NCBI GenBank assembly: GCA_951406725.2
Contig: OX597827.1
Span: 42,842,001-42,906,000, forward strand
Length of the DNA stretch: 64,000 nucleotides
Direction: 5' to 3'
Source of the DNA: Octopus vulgaris
Lineage: Eukaryota
In this document: positions 46,164-47,149 of the stretch, one piece after another
Layout of the letters: the number at the start of each line of letters is the position of its first letter
Numbering within the stretch: position 1 is the first letter of the stretch
Made by a program: the position numbers and the translations under genes
Notes under the pieces: generated by a model
The model's input: the letters and a program-made list of their open reading frames with translations, nothing else
Told to the model about the DNA's origin: nothing
Database searches by the model: none

Positions 46164-46460
46164 CACACACTCTCTCTCTCTCTCTCTCTCTCTCTCTCTC
46201 TCTCTCTCTCTCTCTCTCTATATATATATATATATATATATATATATATATATATATATATATATATATATATATATATATATATATATAACATAAGGGA
46301 CTAAAGCCATCTGAATATGGCTAGGGACAGGGCAGGGTGGTGGGGGTGTTACTGTTGCATTTAGCCCCAGGCGAACATCAACGTCGCCAGATAGGCTTGA
46401 CACCATCACGGCGTCCTCTATCCTGCAAAGGGAGATAATTCCCCGATGAAGCGGAAACCA

Positions 46461-46506
46461 CACACGGACCTAGGTTTCAAGGTGTATTGCCTATCATCAA
46501 CGTGTG
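46461..46506 (-). ncRNA. Type I hammerhead motif (C3U core variant), unit 1
   Basis: Reverse strand: cacacg-TTGATGA-t-agg..cct-t-GAAAC-ctag-GTC-cgtgtg; stem III palindrome ACCTAGGT. Confidence 0.7.
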
Positions 46507-46822
46507 GTAGGCCCCCGCTTCCTCGACGAACAACTCACTCTGCAGGATATTTATATATAGATTTTCAAGCAAAATACATTTGCTGATTTCGAAAATCTGT
46601 TCGACAGCAATAATAATTCTCTAAATGAGATATAGACAGTAACTGATCCATAACATAAGGGACTAAAGCCATCTGAATATGGCTAGGGACAGGGCAGGGT
46701 GGTGAGGGTGTTACTGTTGCATTTAGCCCCAGGCGAACATCAACGTCGCCAGATAGGCTTGACACCATTACGGCGTCCTCTATCCTGCAAAGGGAGATAA
46801 TTCCCCGATGAAGCGGAAACCA

Positions 46823-46868
46823 CACAATGACCTAGGTTTCAAGGTGTATTGCCTATCATCAACGTGTG
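46823..46868 (-). ncRNA. Type I hammerhead motif, unit 2 (stem I altered next to the cleavage site)
   Basis: As unit 1, but GTC is followed by 'at' instead of 'cg'. Confidence 0.55.
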
Positions 46869-47149
46869 GTAGGCCCCCGCTTCCTCGACGAACAACTCAC
46901 TCTGCAGGATATTTATATATAGATTTTCAAGCAAAATGCATTTGCTGATTTCGAAAATCTGTTCGACAGCAATAATAATTCTCTAAATGAGATATAGACA
47001 GTAACTGCTCCATAACATAAGGGACTAAAGTCATCTGAATATGGCTAGGGACAGGGCAGGGTGGTGGGGGTGTTACTGTTGCATTTAGCCCCAGGCGAAC
47101 ATCAACGTCGCCAGATAGGCTTGACACCATCACGGCGTCCTCATGCACA

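Follow-up and report, generated by a model that had tools for sequence, protein, structure and literature searches.

The 64-kb window (the whole stretch of Octopus vulgaris DNA analysed, 64,000 nt) contains, at positions 46288–47142, an insertion made of 2.36 head-to-tail units of 362 bp. The insertion is a copy of a multi-copy, non-coding family in which the full unit carries, on the minus strand, a type I hammerhead with a non-canonical core. On balance, we favour the reading that the insertion is young, is of retrozyme type, depended on a Penelope-like element for its mobilisation, and derives from circular or multimeric RNA.

A 362-bp tandem array abuts a TA microsatellite

Tandem-repeat analysis with TRF reports a period of 362, 2.4 copies (2.36 units), and 98% matches at 46288–47142, in agreement with the original prediction of about 2.4 near-identical 362-bp units arranged head to tail. 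The ribozyme-sense strand of the whole insertion is the minus strand, and its 3′ end lies against (TA)n. Specifically, unit 1 (46288–46649, minus strand) has an intact stem I and a core with U at position 3 (U3); unit 2 (46650–47011, minus strand) has the same U3 core and private changes at 46705, 46769, 46827, and 46828; and a partial third unit (47012–47142, minus strand; 131 bp), which contains no hammerhead, forms the 5′ end of the ribozyme-sense strand. Six of 362 positions distinguish unit 1 from unit 2; over its 131 bp, the third unit has one difference from unit 1 and three from unit 2. The units are contiguous, with no internal region between them, and the GC content of the unit is 44.5%.

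The ribozyme-sense 3′ end of the element adjoins a CT/TA microsatellite, (CT)25(TA)36, at 46170–46289, which is likely the insertion target of the element; the ribozyme-sense 5′ end adjoins a SINE-like stretch. No target-site duplication is visible at the ends of the array, the left flank being (CT)n(TA)n. The longest ATG frame in the array encodes 67 amino acids, has no match in Pfam, and is disrupted by indels in other copies. An open reading frame for reverse transcriptase (RT) or GIY-YIG was not found in or beside the array, no Penelope open reading frame is linked to the unit, and a tRNA search returned none.

Across the window, the DNA is animal-like and rich in microsatellites and contains debris of SINEs, LINEs, and mariner-like elements; none of its 129 long frames is a clear host exon. 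Directly left of the microsatellite flank, at 45960–46160 on the plus strand, is a frameshifted fragment, which we take to resemble a LINE reverse transcriptase. A 170-amino-acid LINE-like fragment at 61316–61828 (plus strand) has 11 homologues, at 41–73% identity, on short contigs. Other tandem repeats are also present. A two-copy tandem at 17399–18382, with copies of about 480–500 bp that are 95% identical, ends near (TA)n at 18480 and has no hammerhead core detectable by regular expression; it is possibly another Penelope-type partial tandem. A 194-bp piece of this tandem recurs with 100% identity at 16947–17140, and diverged copies lie at 21073, 51928, and 60702. Three tandems at 30098–30431 (period 167, 2.0 copies), 32845–33179 (period 184, 1.8 copies), and 35314–36022 (period 184, 3.8 copies) have the look of SINE multimers.

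Both full units contain a minus-strand type I hammerhead fold

The original prediction of one minus-strand hammerhead per full unit is borne out: a type I fold is found in both, with damage to stem I in unit 2. In unit 1, the hammerhead and its closing helix span 46451–46518 (minus strand). Stem I is CACACG/CGUGUG (46506–46501 with 46466–46461; pair probability 0.84–0.99); the core is UUGAUGA (46500–46494), with U at position 3; stem II has a U·U mismatch at its base, followed by three pairs and a 7-nt loop; GAAA occupies 46478–46475; and stem III has two pairs around a palindromic CUAG loop, the palindrome of the stem III region lying at 46475–46468 (minus strand). The predicted cut falls between 46467 and 46466, with C17 of the GUC triplet at 46467. 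In unit 2, the fold spans 46813–46880 (minus strand) and C17 is at 46829, where a 2-nt change at 46827–46828 beside the cut site breaks the first two pairs of stem I. This change, and the U3 core of both copies, had been entered as caveats to the original prediction, and both caveats hold.

A three-stem descriptor, loosened after the motif had been seen so that either pyrimidine is permitted at positions 3 and 4, has one match in the 64-kb window, namely unit 1; unit 2 fails on stem I. By chance, the descriptor matches 0.05 times per shuffled window (20 shuffles) and in 2 of 2,000 shuffled units. Rfam searches gave no hammerhead match at E up to 1 over 44000–49500, no match at E up to 10 over 46400–46570, and none at gathering across the window. 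A plus-strand hammerhead candidate in unit 2 (CCGAUGA at 46805–46811, followed by GAAA) was rejected: it has neither a stem II nor a stem I, and its GAAA is altered in two of the sequencing runs described below (X3 and X4).

The predicted monomer fold occludes the ribozyme

The minus strand of the unit has a predicted folding energy of −124.6 kcal/mol (z −5.1), and the plus strand one of −109 kcal/mol (z −3.2). The minimum free energy (MFE) structure of the minus strand contains, in unit 1, an imperfect rod with the hammerhead at its tip (46419–46549, minus strand) and a second hairpin with an internal loop (46559–46598, minus strand); the multiloop of the unit is closed by a predicted helix of 46354–46347 with 46643–46636. 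The rod and a GGCGA/UCGCC helix had both been proposed before and are both present in this structure. A further proposed helix, aagccatctg/cagataggctt, is complementary in sequence, yet is absent from the MFE and the centroid of both strands.

In the monomer MFE structure, stems II and III are unformed (probability 0.0): the prediction has the 5′ strand of stem II paired with the palindrome of stem III, and a fold constrained to the hammerhead is less stable by 6.2 kcal/mol. The cofold MFE structure of two unit-1 domains is exactly a double hammerhead, an arrangement described for metazoan type I ribozymes (PMC4209133), at −54.8 kcal/mol versus −51.8 kcal/mol for two monomers. The predicted dimer margin is thus small, at only 3 kcal/mol. 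The double hammerhead is absent from the MFE structure of the whole 855-nt array, and a pair of unit-2 domains also does not form it.

Related copies are abundant in public sequencing runs

The run index for the stretch comprises 24 runs from 11 studies under five organism labels, of which 20 hold part of the stretch, with a best share of 0.59; eight of the 24, including X11, are guessed to be RNA, and none is RNA on record. Copies were compared over one period (46600–46961) in four of the 24 runs (X1, X11, X3, and X4), which come from four studies and carry four organism labels; the labels may stand for close relatives or for one species under several names. Related contigs number 1,147 in X1, 6 in X11, 32 in X3, and 75 in X4, in identity classes from below 90% to 99% and above. 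The summed contig depth in X1, which is not a copy number, ranges from about 11,000 to 1,019,000 by bin. With this many related copies in four runs, a single-locus or artefactual reading of the repeat fails. Exact-pattern scans of metagenome contigs and viral contigs gave no match, as expected of an animal repeat.

The copies end at several phases of the unit. Among the 22 of 75 loose ends listed, two, both in X4, reach (AT)n on the ribozyme-sense 3′ side, at phases 1 and 319; five reach unrelated flanks, at phases 4, 159, 265, 301, and 357; and most of the remainder resemble diverged sister copies. Each of these seven phase-bearing ends is a single contig. The ends of the window array lie at phases 1 and 131, and the phase-1 (AT)n end in X4 may be the array locus itself. 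Some contigs continue for 218–255 nt into unlike sequence. In X11, records 9 and 10 share 30-nt overlaps at each end, so that together they form a closed cycle of 343 nt (a 19-nt deletion relative to the unit), which fits a circle or a tandem equally. Contig joints that lead 362 back were discounted as evidence for a tandem or a circle, since the cut point falls inside the unit.

Two further observations concern the copies themselves. A sister subfamily, present in all four runs, shares 46707–46753 and departs behind 46753; one of its X11 contigs is 368 nt long, near unit length. Also in X11, record 13 (46716–46813) and record 9 carry clustered T>C changes at 46759, 46760, 46779, and 46781 (and 46897), which read as A>G in the ribozyme sense; the change at 46779 occurs only in this run, which is guessed to be RNA. 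A-to-I editing of minus-strand RNA is a possible origin.

At 46827 and 46828, the unit-1 letters account for 99.9–100% of depth in all four runs, which indicates that the lesion in unit 2 is private to the window locus. This result bears on the hypothetical 362-nt monomer (46467–46828, minus strand) that cuts at consecutive GUC sites had been proposed to release. Such release requires the cut in unit 2, where stem I carries the lesion and, because the lesion is private to the locus and lies beside the cut, release of a monomer from the window locus is doubtful.

Non-canonical core letters prevail in the copies compared

The core letters at positions 3 and 4 depart from the canonical CUGA in all four runs. 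In X11, X3, and X4, respectively, 0 of 6.9, 0 of 17, and 0 of 61.5 depth at position 3 (46862) has another letter, so U3 was inherited and is not the result of decay at the window locus. In X1, C3 and C4 occur together in the same five contigs, which make up 100,145 of 103,921 depth (96%) and give a core of CCGAYGA. A consensus with C3, which the original prediction had named as a point to check, is therefore seen in X1, but joined with C4, and is absent from X11, X3, and X4, which have only U3U4. No canonical CUGA is found at the core positions among the variants listed for the four runs; contigs lose rare variants, and depth at the core is about a tenth of the peak, so that canonical copies may exist beyond the contigs seen.

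In comprehensive mutagenesis of a type III hammerhead, every single mutant of the CUGA turn was weakly active (PMC9901934), which predicts, by analogy, low activity for the U3U4 and C3C4 cores. The natural U3 variants described mostly covary with A8 (PMC4209133, PMC3088659), and this partner is absent from the 362-bp unit, which has a G8 core. A U4C viroid variant had low activity in vitro and still supported infectivity (PMC3088659), and a halovirus U3·G8 variant with a 2-nt insertion was suggested to be active in vivo (PMC7151607). The axolotl ribozyme HHR_Amex2 has a U·U at the base of stem II, and its cleavage is enhanced in the dimer (PMC7229834).

Variants tend to keep the fold of the unit

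Variant mapping took in 40 of 61 variant rows and 166 confidently paired positions; four rows that restore the unit-1 letter were dropped, and the variants are unphased. The 36 non-private variant sites comprise 21 at unpaired positions, 9 that leave the pairing intact, 2 that together make a compensatory pair (G·U to U-A at 46875/46818), and 4 that disrupt a pair. When these substitutions are placed at random, 10.2 ± 2.4 breaks are expected versus the 4 observed (P 0.007; P 0.056 when the compensatory sites are counted as breaks); unpaired sites as such show no enrichment of variants (P 0.37). Variants thus tend to keep the fold of the unit.

Within the hammerhead, no substitution falls in 46829–46854, which covers stems II and III and GAAA, among the 40 of 61 rows. 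Core positions 3 and 4 vary only from one pyrimidine to the other, X1 and X3 have both U and C at position 7, and G5, A6, G8, A9, GAAA, and GUC show no variant among those listed.

An older relative and probable Penelope-type remnants lie in the same window

A decayed, truncated, and colinear relative of the unit lies at 38242–38460 (minus strand) and has the same start motif, a shared 25-bp block, and the hammerhead skeleton. In particular, the relative has a canonical CUGAGGA core at 38430 and C17 at 38398, and the loop of its stem III is nearly palindromic; stem I has decayed, and the fold is no better than those of shuffles (z +0.67). The shared block, at 46347–46371 (minus strand) in unit 1 and 38274–38296 in the relative, is identical at 23 of 25 bases (E 0.002 within the window) and holds one strand of the multiloop-closing helix. 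The distance from C17 to the block is 124 bases in the relative and 120 in unit 1. The hammerhead skeleton pattern occurs three times in the window, each time in the 362-bp family, and 0.05 times per shuffle. Because the relative carries CUGAGGA, the lineage likely had a canonical core.

Five minimal-hammerhead remnants, of two families, lie in the same window and, read on the ribozyme strand, terminate in (TA)n. The first family comprises 11870–12090 (plus strand), 37944–38150 (plus strand), and 26299–26476 (minus strand), with copies 87–90% identical to the first; each ends in (TA)n, and the cores read CUGA once and CCGA twice. Minimal hammerheads mark the pseudo-LTRs (pLTRs) of Penelope elements (PMC4209133), and the first family likely consists of Penelope pLTR remnants. 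The second family comprises 25170–25385 (plus strand) and 13242–13336 (plus strand), which are 76% identical and end in (TA)n, one copy having a UUGA core and the other a decayed core. As CCGA occurs in two of the three copies of the first family and UUGA in one copy of the second, drift at positions 3 and 4 is not limited to the 362-bp family.

Targeting of TA has been described for Neptune and Naiad elements (10.1101/2021.04.23.441226). From the polarity shared by the remnants and the array, we infer mobilisation of the 362-bp unit by a Penelope-like element that targets TA. A study of Octopus vulgaris repeats reports 31 recently active Penelope-like families, and the words "ribozyme" and "retrozyme" are absent from its main text (PMC13282606); four short motifs and two words had no match in the supplement of that paper.

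Discussion

A route by which the insertion could have arisen can be drawn from the predicted folds and from known systems. Source loci of the family would give rise to multimeric minus-strand transcripts. Pairing of stem II with the stem III palindrome would lock the ribozyme of a monomer and so protect a monomeric circle; in multimers, two units could pair through the palindrome to form a double hammerhead, in which the changed core would make cutting slow. Released monomers might be ligated by a host ligase of RtcB type, as such ligation has been shown in vitro for axolotl and mussel retrozymes (PMC7229834), and, on the same analogy, reverse transcription over more than one unit would produce partial multimers (PMC7229834). 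A Penelope-like reverse transcriptase would copy the circular or multimeric RNA into a TA microsatellite. As modelled, self-cutting by the ribozyme is likely weak, attenuated, and dimer-dependent. Stem I of unit 2 would have been damaged after insertion, so that little monomer is likely to come from the window locus. A monomer spanning 46828 to 46467 could be freed only through the damaged site in unit 2, which makes it likelier that the family gave rise to this locus than that the locus acts as a source for the family.

A competing explanation, possible but to our minds distinctly less probable than the one we favour, keeps the same class of element and takes the ribozyme to be dead or irrelevant: uncut linear multimers would be copied by a Penelope-like reverse transcriptase with no circle involved, and the fold would be kept for recognition by the reverse transcriptase or for RNA stability. 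The core letters speak for it, with no canonical core listed in four runs, low activity of single mutants of the CUGA turn (PMC9901934), and drift to CCGA and UUGA in the other hammerhead remnants of the window. So do two experimental precedents: the Anolis Penelope element (PAc protein) still inserted in vitro when its hammerhead carried catalytic mutations (PMC11167929), from which it follows that cleavage may be dispensable, and one of nine predicted Xenopus retrozyme dimers cleaved in vitro (10.64898/2026.07.22.740005). The pattern of variation argues the other way, as positions 3 and 4 stay pyrimidine, G5, A6, G8, A9, GAAA, and GUC have no listed variant, and position 7 varies freely while the stems keep pairing; moreover, a ribozyme with U4C is reported to be sufficient for a viroid in vivo (PMC3088659).

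The remaining explanations account for the array in other ways. The unit could be the pseudo-LTR of a longer Penelope-like element and the array a 5′-truncated partial tandem of that end, as suggested by the contigs that run on into unlike sequence for 218–255 nt and by the homology of Xenopus retrozymes to pLTRs (24 of 57 families match transposable elements, and 21 of 22 of those are Penelope-like elements; 10.64898/2026.07.22.740005). We judge this improbable: the units stand head to tail with nothing between them, the X11 contigs close a unit-length cycle, the hammerhead is of canonical size (6-bp stem I), unlike the minimal pLTR remnants nearby, and the 67-amino-acid longest frame has no Pfam match and carries indels in other copies. 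Less probable still is a satellite-like repeat amplified as DNA, through unequal crossover or extrachromosomal DNA circles, with a fossil hammerhead aboard. The very high summed depth in X1 could stem from long arrays, and local amplification of retrozymes by unequal crossover has been discussed (10.64898/2026.07.22.740005), but the array is short, at 2.36 units, and has partial ends next to (TA)n, copies have several different flanks and phases, and variation is biased toward keeping a single-strand structure. Finally, a local duplication or an artefact of assembly, in which a hammerhead-like motif arose by chance, would agree with the lack of an Rfam match and is very hard to reconcile with 6 differences in 362 positions between the units, the many copies in four runs, a chance rate for the descriptor of 2 in 2,000, and a colinear relative 8 kb away; we regard it as highly implausible.

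Retrozymes are already known, and one more family adds little by itself; the literature still calls the role of hammerheads in Penelope-type elements unclear (10.1101/2021.04.23.441226). The point of interest in the retrozyme-type reading that we favour is amplification with non-canonical cores, and the possibility of spread with little or no self-cleavage. Tentatively, and with considerable reserve, we suggest that a retrozyme-type lineage, probably of octopus, was amplified to high copy with UU or CC at core positions 3 and 4, and that either slow, dimer-gated cleavage was selected to stabilise circles or the lineage spread without self-cleavage. Were this true, the family would constitute a natural experiment on what the hammerhead does in Penelope-type mobility. 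A young, abundant family with two non-canonical cores and an older canonical relative in the window makes that role testable.

Comparison with known systems

Animal non-LTR retrozymes, which occur in mussel, coral, and axolotl, are tandems of non-coding units of 150–450 bp with less than 50% GC, one type I hammerhead per unit, and no LTR (PMC7229834). The array matches this description in its architecture (362 bp × 2.36, 44.5% GC, non-coding, type I hammerhead, many copies), its unit size matches the Mytilus retrozymes of about 350–390 bp (PMC7229834), and it has the 2-bp stem III with a tetraloop of this class (PMC7229834) and the U·U at the base of stem II found in HHR_Amex2 (PMC7229834). 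It departs from the class in two respects: animal non-LTR retrozymes have CUGANGA where the 362-bp family has UUGAYGA or CCGAYGA (PMC7229834), and the predicted fold of the monomer keeps the ribozyme from forming, unlike in most metazoan retrozymes (PMC7229834). Cephalopods are not named among retrozyme hosts in the available part of PMC7229834, the giant squid genome has 235 Hammerhead_1 loci by Rfam counts (PMC6962438), and no report of a cephalopod or octopus retrozyme was found in the literature covered.

Penelope-derived retrozymes are likewise few-hundred-bp tandems with Penelope-type hammerhead remnants nearby, as here; a mollusc is absent from the sample in the available text of that preprint (10.64898/2026.07.22.740005). 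There, an "active" retrozyme is one with complete hammerheads in two consecutive units, which the window locus lacks (10.64898/2026.07.22.740005). The claim of a retrozyme is partly supported: architecture, a multi-copy family with ends (each a single contig) at several phases, and unit size speak for it, whereas a C3 consensus, with its mixed outcome, and monomer release at this locus are not supported as stated. Given the non-canonical core and this definition of activity, we file the array as a retrozyme-type variant and not as a proven member.

With the pLTR hammerheads of Penelope elements, the array has in common type I topology, a palindromic stem III region, and partial tandem insertion (PMC4209133); their dependence on dimers and low activity are predicted for the 362-bp unit too (PMC4209133). 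It differs from pLTRs in having no RT/GIY-YIG open reading frame and a stem I of full size, so that its hammerhead is not minimal (PMC4209133). An autonomous Penelope-like element would have an RT and GIY-YIG open reading frame between pLTRs, which is absent in and beside the array, and a plant-type LTR retrozyme has a type III hammerhead and two LTRs around an internal region, whereas the array is type I and contiguous. As to the core, the Schistosoma variant pairs U3 with A8 (PMC4209133), and the unit has U3 without that partner. Similar letters to those seen here occur among natural core variants, including a tolerated U10.1–U11.1 mismatch, the U4C viroid, and the halovirus U3·G8 with its insertion (PMC3088659). 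Those variants are isolated cases (PMC3088659), whereas the repeat family described here has been amplified in an animal with variant cores predominant among its copies.
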